IMG/VR virus record: IMGVR_UViG_3300024272_000009
Direction: 5' to 3' (one strand)
DNA length: 64,000 nucleotides
Source: a virus
Taxonomy: Duplodnaviria > Heunggongvirae > Uroviricota > Caudoviricetes
Position 1 is the first letter of the stretch. Every line of letters starts with the position of its first letter. The position numbers and the translations under genes are program-made. A model generated the notes under the pieces. The model searched no databases and was not told the origin of the DNA. It saw only the letters and a list, made by a program, of their open reading frames with translations. This document shows, piece after piece, positions 3,104 to 48,659 of the stretch.

Positions 3104-3403
3104 TTATTTGATGCGCACCCAACCAACAATATCACAATAATAAAAGCTTGTGGTAATATCAGTCTTAAGCTCAATCACGTCGCTCACTGATAAAGAGTGT
3201 CCCTTAAAGTCTGCCGGCATTCTCATGTTAAATACATGAAAGATAATATCACAAATCTCGGTAGCAGTCTTTGCTTCTGCATCGAACTCTCCCTCTCCGA
3301 GGCACTCGTAATCCTTGAAATTAAACTTCTTAGGATCATAACCTCTGAAAGCATAGTCAGTATTTGCGATGTCCTTAATCTGATGAATCTTATATGTAAT
3401 CAT
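3104..3403 (-). CDS. hypothetical protein
   Basis: 99-aa ORF on the minus strand with a GGAGGA RBS. Confidence 0.55.
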   Translation of the reverse strand: MITYKIHQIKDIANTDYAFRGYDPKKFNFKDYECLGEGEFDAEAKTATEICDIIFHVFNMRMPADFKGHSLSVSDVIELKTDITTSFYYCDIVGWVRIK

Positions 3404-3406
3404 ATT

Positions 3407-3589
3407 TTAGTCCTCCATGTAATTGGGTTTATACTTAGGCTTTCTCTTTCGGCGGTCGTCAAAGACCTGAGCTTTGTTCTTTAGCCGGCTAAACTTTCTA
3501 TCAGGGTTAGGAACTGAAGCAACATCGATCGTAAAGCGAATAATGTTGTCAGGCTTCTTAGCTCTGACTTCATGCGTTCTTTGTCTCAT
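3407..3589 (-). CDS. small basic hypothetical protein
   Basis: 60-aa K/R-rich ORF with a strong GAGGAGG RBS 7 nt upstream. Confidence 0.5.
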   Translation of the reverse strand: MRQRTHEVRAKKPDNIIRFTIDVASVPNPDRKFSRLKNKAQVFDDRRKRKPKYKPNYMED

Positions 3590-3601
3590 CTGTTTTCCTC
3601 C

Positions 3602-3853
3602 TCACATCTTTCCATTGGTCATATCCATAATCGTCATGAGAACTTCATTTGATGGATTGGGATCAAGTTCCATCCACTCGTCTGCGTAGACATGAGTGCT
3701 GCCGAAAGAGAATACATGATTCACATCGATGTAGGCAACTAAAGTTTTATTGCCTCTGTCTTCGAGAACGAGGTATCTCTCCTCACCAGTCTCACGAGGT
3801 CCGAGCCACTCGGGCTTTGCTTTGATAATGTCACCAACATTAAATTTACTCAT
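3602..3853 (-). CDS. hypothetical protein
   Basis: 83-aa ORF with a GGAGG RBS. Promoter copy B lies immediately upstream. Confidence 0.55.
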   Translation of the reverse strand: MSKFNVGDIIKAKPEWLGPRETGEERYLVLEDRGNKTLVAYIDVNHVFSFGSTHVYADEWMELDPNPSNEVLMTIMDMTNGKM

Positions 3854-3885
3854 TTTAATTTCCTCCGTTGTTTTCTTACATTAAT

Positions 3886-3914
3886 ATTATATCACGTTTC
3901 GCGCGATTTGTAAA
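3886..3914 (-). promoter_or_regulatory. near-consensus sigma-A-type promoter (copy B of the duplicated cassette)
   Basis: Coding strand reads GTTTACA-aatcgcgcgaaacgTGaTATAAT: -35 TTTACA, 17-bp spacer, extended -10. Confidence 0.65.
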
Positions 3915-3971
3915 CCGACAAAACCAACAAAGTTTCAATAATTTTTCTGTGTGCTTTTGTGCAAAATAAAA

Positions 3972-4028
3972 ATAACGTTTGTTAATATAAACGAAATATA
4001 GGGTTTCGTCAATAATAACAAACGTTAA
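3972..4028 (-). terminator. nested hairpin terminator after nrdG
   Basis: 11-bp inverted repeat aacgtttgtta / taacaaacgtt (3974-3984, 4016-4026). An inner acgaaa/tttcgt pair sits between them. The structure lies directly after the nrdG stop. Confidence 0.5.
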
Positions 4029-8274: not shown

Positions 8275-9483
8275 TTAATTAAATCCGCACTTAAGGCAGA
8301 AACGTGTTTCAGCATCGTATGACTCACTGCCACATTCAGGGCAAGCAGTCAAACGCTTTCTGTAATCTGTAGCTTCTTCAAGAGTATCCACTTTAGAAGT
8401 GCTCTCCTCAAGCTCATCTACCGGAATTACCTGGACATCTTCGTTATTGTATCTATATTCTGGCCAAGTCTGTTCCATCTTAAGATAAGCTTCTTCTTCA
8501 GTAGTAGCTTCTACTGTACCAAGGTCATTACCATTAAGATAGCACATCCAAGTACGAGTTTCAGGATAACCACCATCGTAAGTATTTCCAAGGTCATGAA
8601 GTTCCTCTACATCTTCGTCAAGGAAATCCCAATAGTTTCCCTCTCGGAAAGTAAGAGTTTCACCTCTCGACTTAATAGCAGCTTCGCATCTACTGCAGAG
8701 CCATCCAAGGTCTACTTCATAACGACACTCACTTTTATCATAAAGTTCTTCGCACCAAGTGCACTTAACTATTCTGTCTTCGCAATCACCACAGAGCCAG
8801 CCAATATCATCTTTATGGAAACACTCGTCCTTAGGAAAGAGCTCTTCACAACCAGCACACTCAACCATGTCCTCGTTCTCTTGCATGGTCTCTACTAACT
8901 GCTCAATAGTCATTCCCTCAGGAATCGGCTTTCTTTGGCACTCCTCGATCTTAAAGTCATCTCCGAGTTCTGCTCTGTACTCTCTAAGCTTAGCAAGAAT
9001 ATTGCTGTCATCTGCACCAAACTCATCCATAAACTTCTTAAGGTCCGCACCTGTAACTATACCAATTTCGGAACAAAGCTTAAAAAACTCATCTCTGTCG
9101 GCATTATTAGTAAACGAAATTTCGGCACTTTCGTATAAGTCGTCATTAACAGCAAAAAAATCGTCATCTGCGAATTCAGGGTCAGTGTCTGGGTCGTAGT
9201 CACTCACAACGTCATCTTTAGAGAACTTAGTTTCAGGTTCTGCTTCGGGTTCTTCCATCTCATCTTCCCAAGACCAGATAGTTCCGAGATCAGAAGAGTC
9301 AGTACACTCACCAAAGTCATTTCTCTCTACCTCAGTCTGAGTGATAATAGGTTTCTTACTCATGCAACCTCTTGCGAAAGCTTTAGCATCATCAAAGAAA
9401 TCAAAGTGCTCATCTTCACAGTTAGGGCACTTTACAAAATAAATGTATGTTACCATTATGTAATTCTCCTTACAAAAATTCAA
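8275..9483 (-). CDS. acidic Cys-rich zinc-binding protein with tandem CxxCEEL...GWLC repeats
   Basis: 402-aa ORF with an AAGGAG RBS. It has an N-terminal CPNC, two tandem copies of C-x2-C-EEL-x-K-x-EC-x7-GWLC-x2-CE, and a C-terminal CPECG...CLKCG ribbon. Confidence 0.6.
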   Translation of the reverse strand: MNFCKENYIMVTYIYFVKCPNCEDEHFDFFDDAKAFARGCMSKKPIITQTEVERNDFGECTDSSDLGTIWSWEDEMEEPEAEPETKFSKDDVVSDYDPDTDPEFADDDFFAVNDDLYESAEISFTNNADRDEFFKLCSEIGIVTGADLKKFMDEFGADDSNILAKLREYRAELGDDFKIEECQRKPIPEGMTIEQLVETMQENEDMVECAGCEELFPKDECFHKDDIGWLCGDCEDRIVKCTWCEELYDKSECRYEVDLGWLCSRCEAAIKSRGETLTFREGNYWDFLDEDVEELHDLGNTYDGGYPETRTWMCYLNGNDLGTVEATTEEEAYLKMEQTWPEYRYNNEDVQVIPVDELEESTSKVDTLEEATDYRKRLTACPECGSESYDAETRFCLKCGFN

Positions 9484-9489
9484 TCGTAT

Positions 9490-9497
9490 AATTTAGC
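9490..9497 (-). promoter_or_regulatory. GCTAAATT box upstream of gene 8275..9483
   Basis: Coding strand reads TTGACG-N17-TTTGCTAAATTATACG. The RBS and ATG follow. Confidence 0.5.
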
Positions 9498-9509
9498 AAA
9501 CGAAATTGA

Positions 9510-9977
9510 TCAAGTTTCGTCAATAATTCCCGGCGTTCTAAGAATCCGGGTTGATTCCGAAATTAGGAAAGTTTCGTTCACTTCGCCGGCGACTAAGAAG
9601 ACTTTAAGTATCCGACCTTTGTAGCAGAGTCTAATATCTCTAAAGTCGCCGTTATGAAAATACTCTAATTTCGCGCCGGCGAAATCCGGACAATTACGGA
9701 AGTCAGTTATAAGGTCGAGTTCTCGATCCACAAACTTACACATATCTTCTTTGTAGTAGATATTGTTTAATCCTAGATCTACCAGCTTCCCTCTCCACTG
9801 AGCGAAACACTGATGACCGGGAGGATCAGAGAGGAAGTTCACAGTTTCCCCTCTGTACTCTATAGTATCGTAGCGAACTACTAATCCGAGTTCCCTGGCT
9901 TCCTTAGAGATCTCGAAGGATTGCTCTGAGTTCGTCGTCAAGCTTGTAGTTATTGGTGTTATTAAATTCGACTCCAT
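9510..9977 (-). CDS. hypothetical protein
   Basis: 155-aa ORF whose 5' end overlaps the 3' end of the SNF2 gene by 74 nt in another frame. Confidence 0.4.
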   Translation of the reverse strand: MESNLITPITTSLTTNSEQSFEISKEARELGLVVRYDTIEYRGETVNFLSDPPGHQCFAQWRGKLVDLGLNNIYYKEDMCKFVDRELDLITDFRNCPDFAGAKLEYFHNGDFRDIRLCYKGRILKVFLVAGEVNETFLISESTRILRTPGIIDET

Positions 9978-11631
9978 CTACGAGATACTCTCCTAGTTCT
10001 TTCTTAGTCTCTATGATCTGCTGAACCCTCTCGTCTATTGTATCCTTACACATGAGCACAGTAATGAAAGCGGGTCGAGTGTTATTAACTCTCCAGATTC
10101 TATCTGTGCCCTGGTCGAACATTGCTGCTGTATAAGGTGTATCTAGACATATGAGGTAAGAAGAAGAGTTCAAGGTCCAGCCAGTTCCGACTTTACCCCA
10201 AGTTCCTATAAAGACTTGCTCCTTAGGATCATCCTGGAATCTAGCAACGTTGTTAGCGACTACCGGATCCGGGATATCTCCAGTATTTATACTAAAACGA
10301 AATTCCCCGAGTTTCGCTGCAAGCTCATTTAGAGTTTCTTTAAAGACAGAGAGTACCACAACTTTCTCTCCTTGAGAAGTAAGTTCTTGGATCAGCTCTA
10401 GACAGCGATCCACTTTACATGAACTAACCGGCTGAGTAGTCAGGATACTCGGGCAGGCTGAAGCTTGTCTAAGTCTAGTAGTGAGAGCAAGGAGACTCGA
10501 GGTCTTAAGTTCGATCTTATCGGCTTCTTCCTTGACTCCTTCTTTGATTGCTTCATAGAACTTACGCTGATCATCTTCCGGCTCTAGAAGTTCCAGGGTT
10601 ACTGTCTTCGGCGGCATGTCTGATCTAACTTGGTCTAGAGTTCTTCTAAGTGAACACGACTTAATAACTTCCTGTAGAACCTCAAGATTCTTGAATCCTA
10701 TAACTTGGTTGTTTTTGAAACCTCCGAAATTACAGTACTGAGATTTATAGTTAGTCAGAATAGAGTTATCATTCCCGGTCCACGAGAGAGGGACATAGGC
10801 CGAGAGGGGATTATTAGTTATCAGGGTTCCGGTAGCGGCGATCTTAAAGGGAGCTTCAAGCTTAAGTAGGTTAGTTCCCTGCTGAGAAGTTTTAGTCGCT
10901 GCCTTATGAGCTTCATCGAAAGCAATCATCCCAAACTTATTAGCTGACTTATTGAAAGCTTCGATGATCCGGTCGTCTCTGAGTGACTCTAAGTTAGTGA
11001 TCACGAAGAACTCCTCTATTGGATCCTTGAGTTGCTGAGCTCTCTTGTCCATGGACCTATAGCGAGTAGTTCCGGTTCTAGTAGTGTACTCTCCTAGTAC
11101 AACAGCCGACTCGGTCGAGAACTTCTGAATCTCTTTCTTCCAGTTCTGCTTTAGGGAGTTGACTCCGCAGATAATGAAACAGTGATCGATTATCCCTCTC
11201 CTCTTAAGAGTCTCTGCTAGCCAGATGATAGAGTTAGTCTTTCCTAGACCCATAGAGTCAAGGAGTAGCCACTTCTCTTTGTCTAACCCAAAGTTAATAG
11301 CCTCGAGCTGATGTTCGAATGGTTTCATCTTGAACGAAACTTTCTCAATTTCGGTCAAGGGCTCCAGGTCAAAGTTTTTATTAAAATGAAATTCACCGTT
11401 TTCCGGTGTATCAAGTAATCGTAGTTGTATCTCATCCAAGAAAGTCAGGCTATCAAGTAATCTACCTAGATAACAAACAGGCAGCTCCCAAACCTTTTCT
11501 TTCTTGTGGTAGTGGGCAGTAGGAATAGTCTTAATAGAATCTACTATGTATTCATTATAGTCGAATTGGACTATAAGAGAACTAAGGCCTGATATTTTCT
11601 GTGGAGGAGAAATCTCGTAAATCTTAATCAT
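9904..11631 (-). CDS. SNF2/DEAD-like superfamily-2 helicase
   Basis: 575-aa protein with motif I LDSMGLGKT and motif II FDEAHK (DEAH box) at typical spacing. The C-terminal helicase domain is present. An AGGAG RBS precedes it. Confidence 0.85.
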   Translation of the reverse strand: MIKIYEISPPQKISGLSSLIVQFDYNEYIVDSIKTIPTAHYHKKEKVWELPVCYLGRLLDSLTFLDEIQLRLLDTPENGEFHFNKNFDLEPLTEIEKVSFKMKPFEHQLEAINFGLDKEKWLLLDSMGLGKTNSIIWLAETLKRRGIIDHCFIICGVNSLKQNWKKEIQKFSTESAVVLGEYTTRTGTTRYRSMDKRAQQLKDPIEEFFVITNLESLRDDRIIEAFNKSANKFGMIAFDEAHKAATKTSQQGTNLLKLEAPFKIAATGTLITNNPLSAYVPLSWTGNDNSILTNYKSQYCNFGGFKNNQVIGFKNLEVLQEVIKSCSLRRTLDQVRSDMPPKTVTLELLEPEDDQRKFYEAIKEGVKEEADKIELKTSSLLALTTRLRQASACPSILTTQPVSSCKVDRCLELIQELTSQGEKVVVLSVFKETLNELAAKLGEFRFSINTGDIPDPVVANNVARFQDDPKEQVFIGTWGKVGTGWTLNSSSYLICLDTPYTAAMFDQGTDRIWRVNNTRPAFITVLMCKDTIDERVQQIIETKKELGEYLVDGVEFNNTNNYKLDDELRAILRDL

Positions 11632-11645
11632 AACGAAATCTCCTA

Positions 11646-11747
11646 AGTTACGTATTTGAAATAAATGAGATTACCGAAATTACAGAAGTTACAGAATGAG
11701 ATTTTTGTAATTTCGGAAGTTACGCACGCCTTTACGCGCACGCGTAA
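11646..11747. repeat. iteron-like region: three AAGTTAC(G/A) direct repeats, an 11-bp inverted repeat and the CG palindrome TTACGCG-ca-CGCGTAA
   Basis: AAGTTACG is at 11646-11653 and 11717-11724, and AAGTTACA at 11687-11694. ccgaaattaca (11674-11684) pairs with tgtaatttcgg (11706-11716). The palindrome is at 11732-11747. Confidence 0.6.
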
Positions 11748-11753
11748 GGAAAA

Positions 11754-11808
11754 GGCTAAATTTGTGCTAAAAAACGCAAAAATGTGCAAATTAGCACTAA
11801 ATTTAGCC
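11754..11808. promoter_or_regulatory. 17/18-bp inverted repeat built from two GCTAAATTT half-sites (operator/terminator-like hairpin)
   Basis: ggctaaatttgtgctaa (11754-11770) and ttagcactaaatttagcc (11791-11808) are reverse complements with one bulge. The loop is 20 nt. Confidence 0.6.
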
Positions 11809-11822
11809 TGAAATATGTATAA

Positions 11823-12128
11823 TTAGTCTAAGAGTGAGACATATTGGGTAGAAAAGTCCTTCTCTGGTGCTTCTGCCATAGTCTTATATGTAATAGTTGC
11901 TTCAACTACAAAGGGTTTATCACAGTAATCACAAATATAATGCTCAATCATGTCGGGTTCTTTTCCCTCTCGGTAGTCTTCATAAATGATCTTACCAAGA
12001 GAATCCTTTACTAAATCTTCCGGCTGGCCGATCAAGGCACCAGGTATATAAATTTCTCCCGGAAGGTATTGAGCACCACAATGTGGGCACTTAAAACTAG
12101 CTGATTTACGGGTGGTATTAGAACACAT
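11823..12128 (-). CDS. zinc-ribbon protein (CxxC...CxxC)
   Basis: 101-aa ORF with an AAGGAG RBS. The Cys pairs are CPHCG and CDYCD. The 11-mer CGCGCACGCGT flanks it on both sides. Confidence 0.6.
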   Translation of the reverse strand: MCSNTTRKSASFKCPHCGAQYLPGEIYIPGALIGQPEDLVKDSLGKIIYEDYREGKEPDMIEHYICDYCDKPFVVEATITYKTMAEAPEKDFSTQYVSLLD

Positions 12129-12701
12129 AATCTATCAAACTCCTTAAAATTCGAAAAATAAATTTTTTATGAAAAATAATTAGCACGCGCGCACGCGTCT
12201 AACGCTATATATATAATACTCCAGCGTTATATTATATATCTATAATAGATATATTTATTTTTTTTATATATTTTTTATTTTTATTTTAGATCTTGAGAAA
12301 AATATATAGCTATTGCGGCAAGCCGCTAGGCCGTTGGCCTATAGAGCTAAACAATATTTATTATTATAGATCTATATATAATAATATACAGTATAATATC
12401 TAGTAATTTATCAATTTATTAAAAAATTTTCAGAAAAATATGTTATTTATTGAGGCGAGCTATTAATTTATTAATTTAATAGTTTAATAAATATTTGCAA
12501 ACTTTTTGTAAATTATTTTCCGGGCACAGGTAGGTAAGGCTAGAACATCGACGACAGGGCTCCTTATTCTCTCTGTATCGAGTTTTATGGTAGGGGGCCT
12601 GGTGTTTATATGTCTGCAGTCTTAAACGCGAAATAGGTAGCTTAAAACGCGCCAAAACAAATTGTAAAAATAAAGGCCCCTGTGAAGAGGCCTTAAATTT
12701 A
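12129..12701. other. 570-bp non-coding AT-rich region with GC-rich mini-palindromes (candidate replication origin or packaging region)
   Basis: It contains no credible ORF. Runs of TA/TATATA are interrupted by gcggcaagccgc and ggccgttggcc palindromes, aacgct...agcgtt, and two AGATCT sites. It is the only large gap in an otherwise dense genome. Confidence 0.45.
12661..12694 (-). terminator. Rho-independent terminator after gene 12702..13817
   Basis: aaggcc (12673-12678) pairs with ggcctt (12689-12694) around a 10-nt loop. On the minus strand it is followed by tatttttaca. Confidence 0.6.
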
Positions 12702-13817
12702 TTAAATTGATTCTTTCCAGCCTGTAGGAGTTTTTGTGTACACACCACAGGACTCCTTCCAGCCATTAGGGGTCTTAACCCAGACTTGACCTTCTACCCA
12801 ACCCTTAGAAGTTTTGATTCTTACTAAACCGAGTTGTTTATTAAGTGCCTCAGAAGAAATTCCGGGACCGGCGAGTAAAGAGCTATTTAGTATCTCATCC
12901 TCTGTCGGCTCGTAGTCTACAGAAAGTCCATAAACCGTAAAAGGATATACAGCAACCTTTATTTGATAATCTCTCTCTATACCCAGGTCTAATGGATTAA
13001 AATAAATTTCAGTAGTATCGGCGCCTAAGATAGGGACTTCAATATCTTTACCGGCTATTTCATAACTTTCGATCGGCGGCTCATCCTCGAGTGCCTCTAT
13101 AGAAGCCGTAACAGCAGGATCAGACTTCTCAAGCCAGTAGCCTGAATCTTTCTTTACTGCGGTCAGTCCTTTTACCACACTAAAAGATCCTGACTCTCCT
13201 GCTCTATATCTAAGCTCTACACAGTAGCCATATACAGGAGAATAGTCTGCAGCCGGCTCTGCCTTAGTCCAAGAGCACTTAGTTCTATAGGAAGTCTCCT
13301 TCTTTACTTCTACCACGCCGCTCATGGTTGGGGCGAACTCAAGATAATAAGGAAGCTTCGCTGCTGCAGTATTTATTGAACAGGTTTTTTCATAAACAGC
13401 GCCAGTATCGCTGAAGGCTTTTACCTTAGCAGTAAAGCAGCCGTTAGCTTTACATAAAGTTTTTAAGTCCAGATTTTCAAAAGGTATGCGACATTCAAAT
13501 ATAGTTGCATTTCTATAATAATTATTATATACTTCTAACTTACTTTTTGTCTTGTAAGCAGTGACAGTGGCAGCCTTAAAGGTAGTTAGAATGGGAAGGT
13601 AGACACCTTCGAGATAATAAAATTCTAACTTGTCCCTACCGCTAGCAAAACCAAGACTTTCTCCATCGGATACTTTTGTGTGCGCGGCAGTATAAACAGC
13701 ACCATGAAAAAGTTTACACTTAATAGTAAAAAATCTTTTATAATCCCAATGGCACTCAAGCTGTCGCCACTCATCTTCAAATTCTACTGAACATTCTAGC
13801 TTTAAAGGTTCAGCCAT
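12702..13817 (-). CDS. hypothetical protein with C-terminal tandem peptide repeats (possible virion/adsorption protein)
   Basis: 371-aa ORF. The C-terminus reads GWVEGQVWVKTPNGWKESCGVYTKTPTGWKESI, with repeated TPxGWKES units. Confidence 0.55.
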   Translation of the reverse strand: MAEPLKLECSVEFEDEWRQLECHWDYKRFFTIKCKLFHGAVYTAAHTKVSDGESLGFASGRDKLEFYYLEGVYLPILTTFKAATVTAYKTKSKLEVYNNYYRNATIFECRIPFENLDLKTLCKANGCFTAKVKAFSDTGAVYEKTCSINTAAAKLPYYLEFAPTMSGVVEVKKETSYRTKCSWTKAEPAADYSPVYGYCVELRYRAGESGSFSVVKGLTAVKKDSGYWLEKSDPAVTASIEALEDEPPIESYEIAGKDIEVPILGADTTEIYFNPLDLGIERDYQIKVAVYPFTVYGLSVDYEPTEDEILNSSLLAGPGISSEALNKQLGLVRIKTSKGWVEGQVWVKTPNGWKESCGVYTKTPTGWKESI

Positions 13818-13820
13818 AAG

Positions 13821-14414
13821 TTATTCCTCTCTTTCTGCCGCGGACTCTATATGAGAAAGAACATCTTGGATTATTTCTTTAGTAGCATCAGAAAGATTCT
13901 TCTCCGGGTCGTCCATAGCTTTATTATAATAAAAATCAGAAAGTTCTTTTAGGTCTCCCTTATCTATAGAGAAGGAACCCCAGTCGCAGAGCATCTCAAG
14001 AATATAGATATAAGGCATGTCTTCTCCCAGCCAGAATTCAGGGTGATGCTCATTGTTCATCCAGTGATGCTTCCATGCTTCCTCATACTCGAAGGTCTTC
14101 TCTCCGTTGCCATACCACTTCTGAGCGTAAGGCTCGAACTCTTCTTCCGAGAATTTAGACTCATCGTGTTCATTAATAACTTCATGGAAAGCATCGAGGT
14201 CGACGCCCTCGAAAACTTCAGGACAATTTTCTTCTAGCCAGGAAGCAAACTTCTTTACTCTTTCTTTATGTGCTTCTATATACTCTTGATATTCTTTCTG
14301 ATAATCCGCTCCGCCCTCTGCTATAGCGCTAAGAGCATGAAGAGCATTAATAAAATTCATATTCATCTTTTCTTGCTGCCTTTCTATATAGATTAAAAGC
14401 TTCCAAGGAAGCAA
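13821..14414 (-). CDS. hypothetical protein
   Basis: 197-aa acidic ORF with His/Trp-rich motifs (HHWMNNEHHPEFW). Confidence 0.55.
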   Translation of the reverse strand: MLPWKLLIYIERQQEKMNMNFINALHALSAIAEGGADYQKEYQEYIEAHKERVKKFASWLEENCPEVFEGVDLDAFHEVINEHDESKFSEEEFEPYAQKWYGNGEKTFEYEEAWKHHWMNNEHHPEFWLGEDMPYIYILEMLCDWGSFSIDKGDLKELSDFYYNKAMDDPEKNLSDATKEIIQDVLSHIESAAEREE

Positions 14415-31129: not shown

Positions 31130-31137
31130 AATTTAGC
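31130..31137 (-). promoter_or_regulatory. GCTAAATT box upstream of the sheath-like gene
   Basis: Minus strand reads TCTGCTAAATTATTTG. Confidence 0.5.
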
Positions 31138-36692: not shown

Positions 36693-36700
36693 AATTTAGC
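36693..36700 (-). promoter_or_regulatory. GCTAAATT box
   Basis: Minus strand reads TTTGCTAAATTAATTG. Confidence 0.5.
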
Positions 36701-47802: not shown

Positions 47803-48564
47803 TTAATCCTCCATTCTATCTAGTCGCATAGGAATAACAAACTTGAGATTACAACCGTCACAACATCTGCCATCATCTGCAGACATAAAAGGCTCAGGGT
47901 TATTTCCATGACCTTCGATAGGTTCACCACAAATACAACAAAAGCTTTCTTTTGCTTCTGTTAGTTTTTCACCAAATACATTAACAGCGTCAAAATCAAG
48001 ATTAAAGAAGCTCTCCTCAAGTTCTGTTGCGTCTGTCATTCTATCCTCATACTCTGCCTTAAATTCTTTTTCAGGAGCTTTGTCCACGTTAGCAAAGTGT
48101 TTACGGTCCTCTTCTTTCTTAATTGAGAGGTCGTAGTCCATTACTTTTACTCTATTTTTATCATAAAGAATACCATCATCATAATAATAAATAATGTCAC
48201 TATTCATAAGTTTAGTTACATCTTTATCATCTCCAAGATTATTTAGAGTATAAACAGAGCAGTTAGCATTATCTAGTTCAATAAGAGCTTTTAAGATCTC
48301 AGCTTTATTTGAACAGAAGATATTTTGAGGACGAATATAGTATCTACGAACGTAACGTTTAGCCTCCTTTAGCTCAACACTTTCAGTCATACCACAGCCT
48401 TCAGTGCCTTCAGCAGAAGTCTCCACACAGTCTGTCCCCATAGCCTGATTGAATCTACCTATATTTAAAGAAATATCACCAGTTGTATATGTGATAGAAT
48501 CATAAGGCTTTTTCTTAGTTTTTAGTTTTTTCTCCTCTGTAATAGGAGTTTTATTTATTTTCAT
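47803..48564 (-). CDS. hypothetical Cys-rich protein
   Basis: 253 aa. The C-terminus reads CCICGEPIEGHGN...CCDGCN. A GC-rich leader precedes the RBS. Confidence 0.45.
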   Translation of the reverse strand: MKINKTPITEEKKLKTKKKPYDSITYTTGDISLNIGRFNQAMGTDCVETSAEGTEGCGMTESVELKEAKRYVRRYYIRPQNIFCSNKAEILKALIELDNANCSVYTLNNLGDDKDVTKLMNSDIIYYYDDGILYDKNRVKVMDYDLSIKKEEDRKHFANVDKAPEKEFKAEYEDRMTDATELEESFFNLDFDAVNVFGEKLTEAKESFCCICGEPIEGHGNNPEPFMSADDGRCCDGCNLKFVIPMRLDRMED

Positions 48565-48651
48565 TGAAAGATACTCTCCTTCTTGTTATTTACAAAGAAA
48601 GACGACCACAGCAACGGTGAAAGGCTAAGTCCGCCGCCGCGACCGTCATAT

Positions 48652-48659
48652 AATTTAGC
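48652..48659 (-). promoter_or_regulatory. GCTAAATT box
   Basis: Minus strand reads TTTGCTAAATTATATGACG. Confidence 0.5.

Follow-up and report, generated by a model that had tools for sequence, protein, structure and literature searches.

Conserved base-pairing identifies a probable terminator hairpin, rather than a promoter-box operator, between the zinc-ribbon and SNF2 helicase genes of an uncultured myovirus

An inverted repeat at 11754-11808 of a 64,000-nucleotide stretch of phage DNA (the window, meaning the whole stretch analysed) carries the octamer GCTAAATT in both of its arms and in opposite orientations. This raises the question as to whether the element is recognised as duplex DNA by a dimeric protein or functions as a hairpin within the transcript that crosses it. 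The original prediction allowed for a strong RNA hairpin terminator, a dimeric operator or both, and put the palindrome forward as the best candidate for the primary site of the factor that reads the octamer elsewhere.

Every gene and long open reading frame of the window lies on the minus strand, and the repeat occupies a 191-nt intergenic gap. The upstream gene (11823-12128, minus; TAA stop at 11823-11825 in the open reading frame list) encodes a 101-residue protein with a CxxC...CxxC motif, and the downstream gene (9904-11631, minus; ATG at 11631) a 575-residue SNF2-family helicase. Both had been named beforehand. The helicase is borne out by Pfam (SNF2-rel_dom at 3e-24, ResIII and Helicase_C), whereas the putative zinc ribbon takes its label from the CxxC...CxxC motif and nothing else. 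Searches of Pfam, NCBIfam, PHROGs and PDB sequences returned nothing significant for the 101-residue protein. It is always encoded directly upstream of the SNF2 helicase, even in relatives of ~40% identity (L160, L013-L025), and is probably a conserved helicase partner. The phage also encodes a tail sheath, a portal, a head maturation protease and NrdD, and is therefore classed as an uncultured myovirus, the host of which is probably a Firmicute. A megablast search of positions 9000-14000 against cultured phages gave no match. The nearest cultured helicases found by tblastn, in Bacillus phage Flasso, Clostridium phiCTP1 and Streptococcus Dp-1, are only 34% identical, and there is therefore no annotated orthologous region for comparison.

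The 17/18-bp inverted repeat is recovered both from the sequence and by a repeat search, as originally described. Its plus-strand arms, ggctaaatttgtgctaa at 11754-11770 and ttagcactaaatttagcc at 11791-11808, pair 17/18 with one bulged base around the 20-nt spacer aaaacgcaaaaatgtgcaaa (11771-11790), and the spacer does hold gcaaaaatgtgc, at 11777-11788. The inverted-repeat search divides the palindrome at the bulge into 11753-11763/11799-11809 (100%) and a second repeat. Read as RNA from the minus strand, the 5′ arm (A)GGCUAAAUUUAGUGCUAA (11791-11809, the right arm of the plus strand) holds the forward copy of the GCTAAATT core and the 3′ arm UUAGCACAAAUUUAGCC(U) (11753-11770, the left arm of the plus strand) holds the reverse copy. 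Between them is the U-rich 20-nt loop UUUGCACAUUUUUGCGUUUU (11771-11790, minus), within which a few weak pairs are predicted. The stem starts 13 nt past the zinc-ribbon TAA stop, is 17-18 bp long and mostly A-U, and has a G+C-rich base (GGC/GCC) in which three of the four basal pairs are G-C. Directly past the stem, and on the minus strand only, comes a T-tract (11746-11753, minus; UUUUCCUU on the transcript), which is broken by CC (UUUCCUU) and whose first U may close the stem. The hairpin lies 122 nt before the SNF2 start, and the transcript reads, in order, TAA, 13 nt, 5′ arm, spacer, 3′ arm, UUUCCUU, ACGCGTGCGCGTA, GGCGTGCGTAACTTCCGAAATTAC, short repeats, the SNF2 ribosome-binding site and ATG. 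Folding of the minus strand gives -25.7 kcal/mol against -9.8 +/- 2.3 kcal/mol for 200 dinucleotide-preserving shuffles, none of which is as stable (0/200; z = -7.0). Rfam 15, searched over 11000-13000 at a permissive E-value, has no family at its gathering score; two sub-threshold matches, snoR110 (25.8 vs 44 bits) and mir-7637 (22.1 vs 88 bits), are chance matches of hairpin shape. Small open reading frames across the hairpin (11643-11789, minus; 11665-11811, plus) were rejected, as the length of the hairpin in relatives varies by non-multiples of three.

The window has 18 copies of the octamer, where 6.1 +/- 2.5 are expected and 0/100 shuffles reach 18. Two copies belong to the hairpin arms, three lie on the plus strand inside genes, and 13 are single intergenic copies on the coding strand, usually just past the T-run of a short-loop terminator hairpin and 30-95 nt ahead of a start codon (for example 48652-48659, 36693-36700, 31130-31137 and 9490-9497, all minus). 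The hairpin arms are, as had been claimed, the only opposed copies. The 13 single boxes share an extended 20-nt consensus, T.ATYT-GCTAAATT-AwwYR (T.ATYTGCTAAATTAwwYR). A matrix spanning -6 to +13 and built on these boxes scores them at 9.1-27.4 bits (mean 20.2) by leave-one-out, and a scan of both strands above 14 bits returns just the 13 single boxes, all on the minus strand. Copies of GCTAAATT in coding sequence score -4.7 to 4.9 bits, the range of chance. Judged by its sequence context, GCTAAATT is a genuine signal of promoter-like character. The tTGCTAAATTa of the single boxes presumably corresponds to the TGnTAnnnT extended -10 pattern of sigma-70/sigma-A. As in extended -10 promoters, the single GCTAAATTA boxes are strand-specific, follow AT-rich sequence and stand at a short distance (30-95 nt) before starts, but the C of TGC and the A at +8, which the host consensus leaves free, are invariant in these boxes and in relatives. 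The single boxes may therefore have a phage-specific reader. A sigma-70 consensus scan, which does not see the box, gave 32 matches against 28.4 in shuffles and is thus uninformative, and a literature search for GCTAAATT together with promoter and phage yielded just incidental matches of primer type. The leader between the box at 48652 and the open reading frame at 47803-48564 (48565-48651, minus; ~95 nt) is unusually long, GC-rich and self-complementary, gacggtcgcggcggcggac...ccgttgctgtggtcgtc, and might represent a small RNA or a 5′ UTR with structure.

Relatives were gathered by SNF2-anchored searches, which provided 51 loci from viruses and 80 from metagenomes, with rumen and goat gut as the main sources; matches to the exact 16-mer RAACTTCCGAAATTWC in viral contigs are mostly unrelated chance matches and proved useless for gathering homologues. 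The intergenic module is present where SNF2 is at least 82% identical, and at one further locus at 69%, and comprises the hairpin 10-20 nt past the zinc-ribbon stop, the T-run, CCTTACGCG... and ACTTCCGAAATTAC. A covariance model derived from 14 homologous hairpins finds exactly one match per genome in 32/46 sources, and scores the window hairpin at 93.7 bits (11742-11822, minus). Across 30 distinct rows of an alignment fitted to the model, and hence with pair counts that lean towards the structure, standard pairs fill 79.0% of cells against 65.4 +/- 1.2% when shuffled (0/500), while partners slid by 1-3 columns pair in 28-52% of cells. In the same rows changes have occurred on both sides of 16/18 stem pairs, with a covariation score of 0.431 against 0.207 shuffled (0/500), and the T of the GCT core appears as U-A in 11 rows, C-G in 9, U-G in 7 and A-U in 2. 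Independent checks on the pairing come from a structure-blind alignment and from individual folds. A structure-blind MAFFT alignment of 14 long-form hairpins gives an RNAalifold stem with compensatory change in 8/11 pairs, and twelve relatives folded singly reach -13.9 to -25.6 kcal/mol (z -3.1 to -8.4). The 30 variants range from 46 to 65 nt, with stems of 12-14 bp in several relatives and spacers of 9-21 nt that fall into two classes of about 10 and about 19-20 nt. Two to four of the four basal pairs are G-C in 29/30 distinct variants, and 5-7 T are found within the 8 nt past the stem in 30/30. Complementarity between the arms (a mean of 12.7 ungapped matches) exceeds both the self-palindromy of each arm (9.7/10.1) and the direct similarity of one arm to the other (9.1). 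Where the A/T cores are asymmetric, one arm has the complement of the other and not a repeat of it (for example AATTTTT vs AAAAATT in L170). Together these data argue that the element is very probably selected as a nucleic-acid hairpin, rather than as a protein-binding box palindrome.

Other features of the locus vary among relatives. A motif, TT(A/G)CAC-N-TTTT(T), is common to the 5′ flank and a portion of the spacer in many of them; it is not universal, and common descent or a local duplication accounts for it best. TTRCACNTTTT, ACACNTTTTT and GCACNTTTTT are no commoner than chance genome-wide and occur on the coding strand only at the hairpin locus. A promoter made up of the loop TTGCAC/TTTACA as a -35-like and the 3′-arm YAAATT as a -10-like element was rejected, the spacing between them ranging from ~7 to 19 nt among relatives. 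Six relatives (L152, L186, L188, L190, L196 and L215) are without the whole module of hairpin, GC-tract and repeats, and in these SNF2 starts 22-24 nt past the zinc-ribbon stop. Co-transcription of the gene pair is therefore possible and the pair can do without the hairpin, which makes the module an optional insertion or deletion within the clade. In L011 (about 3400-3990), L174, L182 and L184 an extra open reading frame that looks like a mobile, homing-endonuclease-like gene lies between module and SNF2, and part of the ACTTCCGGAATTTCGGAGG leader is duplicated ahead of SNF2.

A terminator is the most likely role for the hairpin because relatives keep its base-pairing and T-run rather than the GCTAAATT box, and we place at about 0.6 the probability that it works at the 3′ end of the zinc-ribbon gene as an intrinsic terminator or attenuator. 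An RNA polymerase leaving that gene would transcribe both arms, 5′ before 3′, with the U-rich spacer between them, and the stem would form as the polymerase sits on the UUUUCCUU tract, with release of the transcript. Acting as a factor-independent terminator or a leaky attenuator, the hairpin would insulate the zinc-ribbon unit from an SNF2 unit that would begin right past the T-run, with a conserved region of its own, made up of a GC-rich alternating purine-pyrimidine tract followed by TAACTTCCGAAATTAC and short repeats. Observed directly are the position, strand, stability, T-tract and covariation of the hairpin and the non-conservation of its box; termination by the hairpin, its efficiency and the promoter after it are what we infer. 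The likeness to intrinsic (Rho-independent) terminators lies in a stem-loop that follows a stop codon on the transcribed strand, has a G+C-rich base and runs directly into U residues, and in the conservation of pairing but not of sequence. The differences are the large apical spacer, the mostly A-U stem and the CC-interrupted U-tract. Textbook intrinsic terminators have 3-8-nt loops, and the 20-nt spacer (9-21 nt in relatives) is well above these. A terminator consensus scan that admits loops of 3-8 nt at most leaves the site uncalled because the spacer exceeds its limit. The loop motif is also unexplained by termination, and the relatives that co-transcribe the gene pair likewise count against a strong, canonical terminator. 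The predicted terminator thus stands as regards strand, position, T-run and compensatory changes in ~30 relatives, but the epithet 'strong' does not, given the atypical spacer and interrupted U-tract.

The phage itself provides further comparisons. Its other gene-end hairpins fold at -12 to -25 kcal/mol with similar T-runs, and the present hairpin ranks with the most stable of them. The layout elsewhere in the window runs from terminator hairpin to T-run to promoter box, and a hairpin and T-run ahead of a new regulatory region fits this layout. The terminator-promoter junctions at 48700-48652, 15992-15939 and 46341-46278 likewise combine similar stability with a T-run and the regulatory region of the next gene, but their loops are of 3-8 nt and a full TTGCTAAATTA box follows, whereas at 11754-11808 the box core lies inside the arms and the GC-rich alternating tract comes instead. 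No ordinary GCTAAATTA box is found after the hairpin, and a fully efficient terminator would therefore need a so far unrecognised SNF2 promoter.

The alternative favoured originally is an operator in duplex DNA, made up of the two opposed GCTAAATT half-sites and serving as the primary site of a dimeric box-reading factor. The arms were said to carry the same box that marks promoters, and both do hold the 8-mer core, but the extended consensus (T-rich -6..-1, A at +8, Y-R at +11/+12) is absent. The forward copy (11800-11807, minus) has no T-rich -6..-1 flank and a T rather than A at +8, and scores 4.1 bits, within the chance range of the in-gene copies and below the 9.1-27.4 bits of the single boxes; its flank-only score is -10.5 bits, as for chance matches in coding sequence, and the reverse copy, read on the plus strand, scores -10.5 bits. 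Among 33 distinct hairpins the exact box is found in the forward position in 7, in the reverse position in 8 and in both in 5, so that the arm box is lost in 26/33. At the next orthologous promoter, after the SNF2 cluster, the single box is kept as exact GCTAAATT(A) in 24/24 loci, these being the members of the same set of loci that hold >2.7 kb downstream, and single boxes are kept also in relatives with SNF2 just 53-62% identical. On flanks, conservation and distance from the start codon alike, the hairpin copy falls outside the putative promoter-box class of this phage, and the GCTAAATT core in the arms would be an incidental variant of a drifting arm consensus, RGCYRAATTT, that is not read as a box. 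An operator could draw on the occurrence of the core in both orientations only at this hairpin, on arms that are each partly palindromic round AAATTT with GGCY...RGCY clamps, and on the five relatives that have both boxes. The palindromic operators of phages (lambda/P22 type, bound by dimeric repressors of RHH or HTH kind) share with this site an inverted repeat in an intergenic control region and partly self-palindromic arms, but they keep sequence and phase, whereas here half-sites and spacing vary and the changes are compensatory between arms. Core positions co-vary with their pairing partners, the flanks misfit the box consensus, and arm-to-arm complementarity outweighs self-palindromy and direct similarity. 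The spacer of 9-21 nt does not hold the half-sites in phase, which argues against one large dimeric operator. Two tandem palindromic operators were rejected in turn, since inter-arm complementarity is greater than intra-arm palindromy and the A/T cores are complementary and unrepeated. Finally, the single boxes are one-stranded (13/13 on the coding strand), which suits an orientation-specific promoter element of TGnTAnnnT-like kind and not a symmetric dimer site. We therefore regard an operator as very improbable. Neither the dimeric operator nor the primary binding site of the original prediction survives the comparison with related phages that it had called for: relatives conserve the single boxes but mostly not the box palindrome, whose half-site sequence and spacing both vary. 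The forward core could alternatively serve as an SNF2 promoter placed inside the terminator, which is quite unlikely. Transcripts started in the 5′ arm would be without the full arm and escape termination while those from upstream stop, a scheme that we likewise hold to be quite unlikely. The geometry would make a neat insulator, the core octamer, on the coding strand, precedes the SNF2 ATG by 176 nt, and the column consensus of the 5′ arm across relatives is the core. The true boxes stand 30-95 nt from their start codons, however, and the lowest of them (9.1 bits) outscores the arm copy, which is on a par with in-gene chance matches (-4.7 to 4.9 bits) and lacks the T-rich flank and the A at +8 of the true boxes. 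Moreover, most relatives have lost the box and must still express SNF2.

Three further readings accept a hairpin and assign it another role. An RNA processing or stability element, cleaved between the cistrons in the manner of RNase III or left as a protective 3′ stem-loop after processing, is unlikely, although it would fit a bulged and mostly A-U stem of 17-18 bp, which is long, encloses a large spacer and is maintained by covariation. It would also fit the co-transcription of the zinc-ribbon and SNF2 genes in some relatives and the lack of an ordinary box promoter after the hairpin. RNase III sites of the T7 type consist of about two turns of double-stranded RNA, often with an internal loop. 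The 12-14 bp stems of several relatives would be short for RNase III, and a processing site would have no need of the invariant T-run and G+C-rich stem base, which are features of terminators. We consider it very improbable that the element is a DNA hairpin or cruciform for replication or packaging, such as an origin or single-strand initiation signal. It does lie ~320 nt downstream of a conserved non-coding region (12129-12700), adjoins a helicase gene and sits in a cluster of repeats and GC-rich alternating tracts, and covariation cannot separate RNA from single-stranded DNA hairpins. Such a role, however, leaves the coupling to the stop codon and the strand-specific T-run unexplained, and the module is missing in otherwise similar relatives. 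G-U pairs are also frequent (9 G-U at one pair, 7 U-G at another), and those of the coding-strand RNA would be A-C mismatches on the other DNA strand. The hairpin might, lastly, be part of a composite switch that heads the replication module together with the U-tract, the Z-DNA-prone tract and the CGAAAT/GTAACT repeats, which we think very unlikely. The same low expectation applies to the proposal that the box-like arm competes for a box-reading factor, or is occluded from it, according to the state of the DNA or RNA hairpin. Involvement of the CGAAAT/GTAACT repeat array through complementarity to the SNF2 ribosome-binding region is no less doubtful. If true, the switch would time the shift from zinc-ribbon to SNF2 expression.

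After the hairpin, the GC-rich, alternating purine-pyrimidine and self-complementary tract at 11733-11746 (minus; ACGCGTGCGCGTA, then GGCGTGCGTAACTTCCGAAATTAC) may open the promoter or regulatory region of SNF2. A twin tract precedes the zinc-ribbon gene at 12183-12198, and the two Z-DNA-prone tracts, TACGCGCACGCGTA and GCACGCGCGCACGCGT, flank that gene. GC-rich alternating tracts of at least 13 nt are limited to these two in 64 kb, against 0.31 expected, and each is followed by a sequence of TAAYTW type (GCGTGC-TAATTA and GCGTGCG-TAACTT). In relatives the place and length of the tract (about 27 nt) are kept while its sequence varies, as in CGCGCGTATACGCG or CGCGAGCATATATGCTCGCG. The tracts may represent a second and distinct class of early promoter for the first genes past the 570-nt non-coding region, or a supercoil-sensitive element. 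That AT-rich region (12129-12700, minus) extends between the terminator of the gene for a 371-residue protein (12673-12694) and the zinc-ribbon gene, has blocks conserved in relatives (ATTAAATTAATAGCCCGCC, TTTTCTGAAAATTTTTTAATAA, TATACTGTATA, GACTGAGGCC...GGCCGAAGGC and GCGGCTTGCCGCAAT) and could serve as an origin, a genome end or an early control region. Short repeats in either orientation (CCGAAATTAC, GAAATCTC, CGTAACTYC and GTAATTTCGG) form an array at 11632-11725, between the GC-rich tract and the start of SNF2, and some of these repeats show complementarity to GGAGATTTCG, the ribosome-binding region of SNF2. The window has an excess of AACTTCCGAAATTAC-like 15-mers (13 at <=3 mismatches vs 2.8 expected), and the distant relatives L013, L021 and L025 have 2-3 direct repeats of GGGAG(A/T)TTTCG at the place of the array.

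Our results put a probable limit between two transcription units in the gap that separates the zinc-ribbon gene from the SNF2 helicase operon of this uncultured myovirus of the rumen or gut. The palindrome is unfit as a reference site for the reader of the GCTAAATTA box, which removes a false lead, and useful targets for that question are the 13 single boxes, kept even at 53-62% protein identity. If the GC-rich tract is a promoter class of its own, the hairpin would be a normal terminator-before-promoter insulator. The hairpin itself is an ordinary regulatory element, and the less ordinary features of the locus are the GC-rich alternating tracts and the 570-nt conserved non-coding region.
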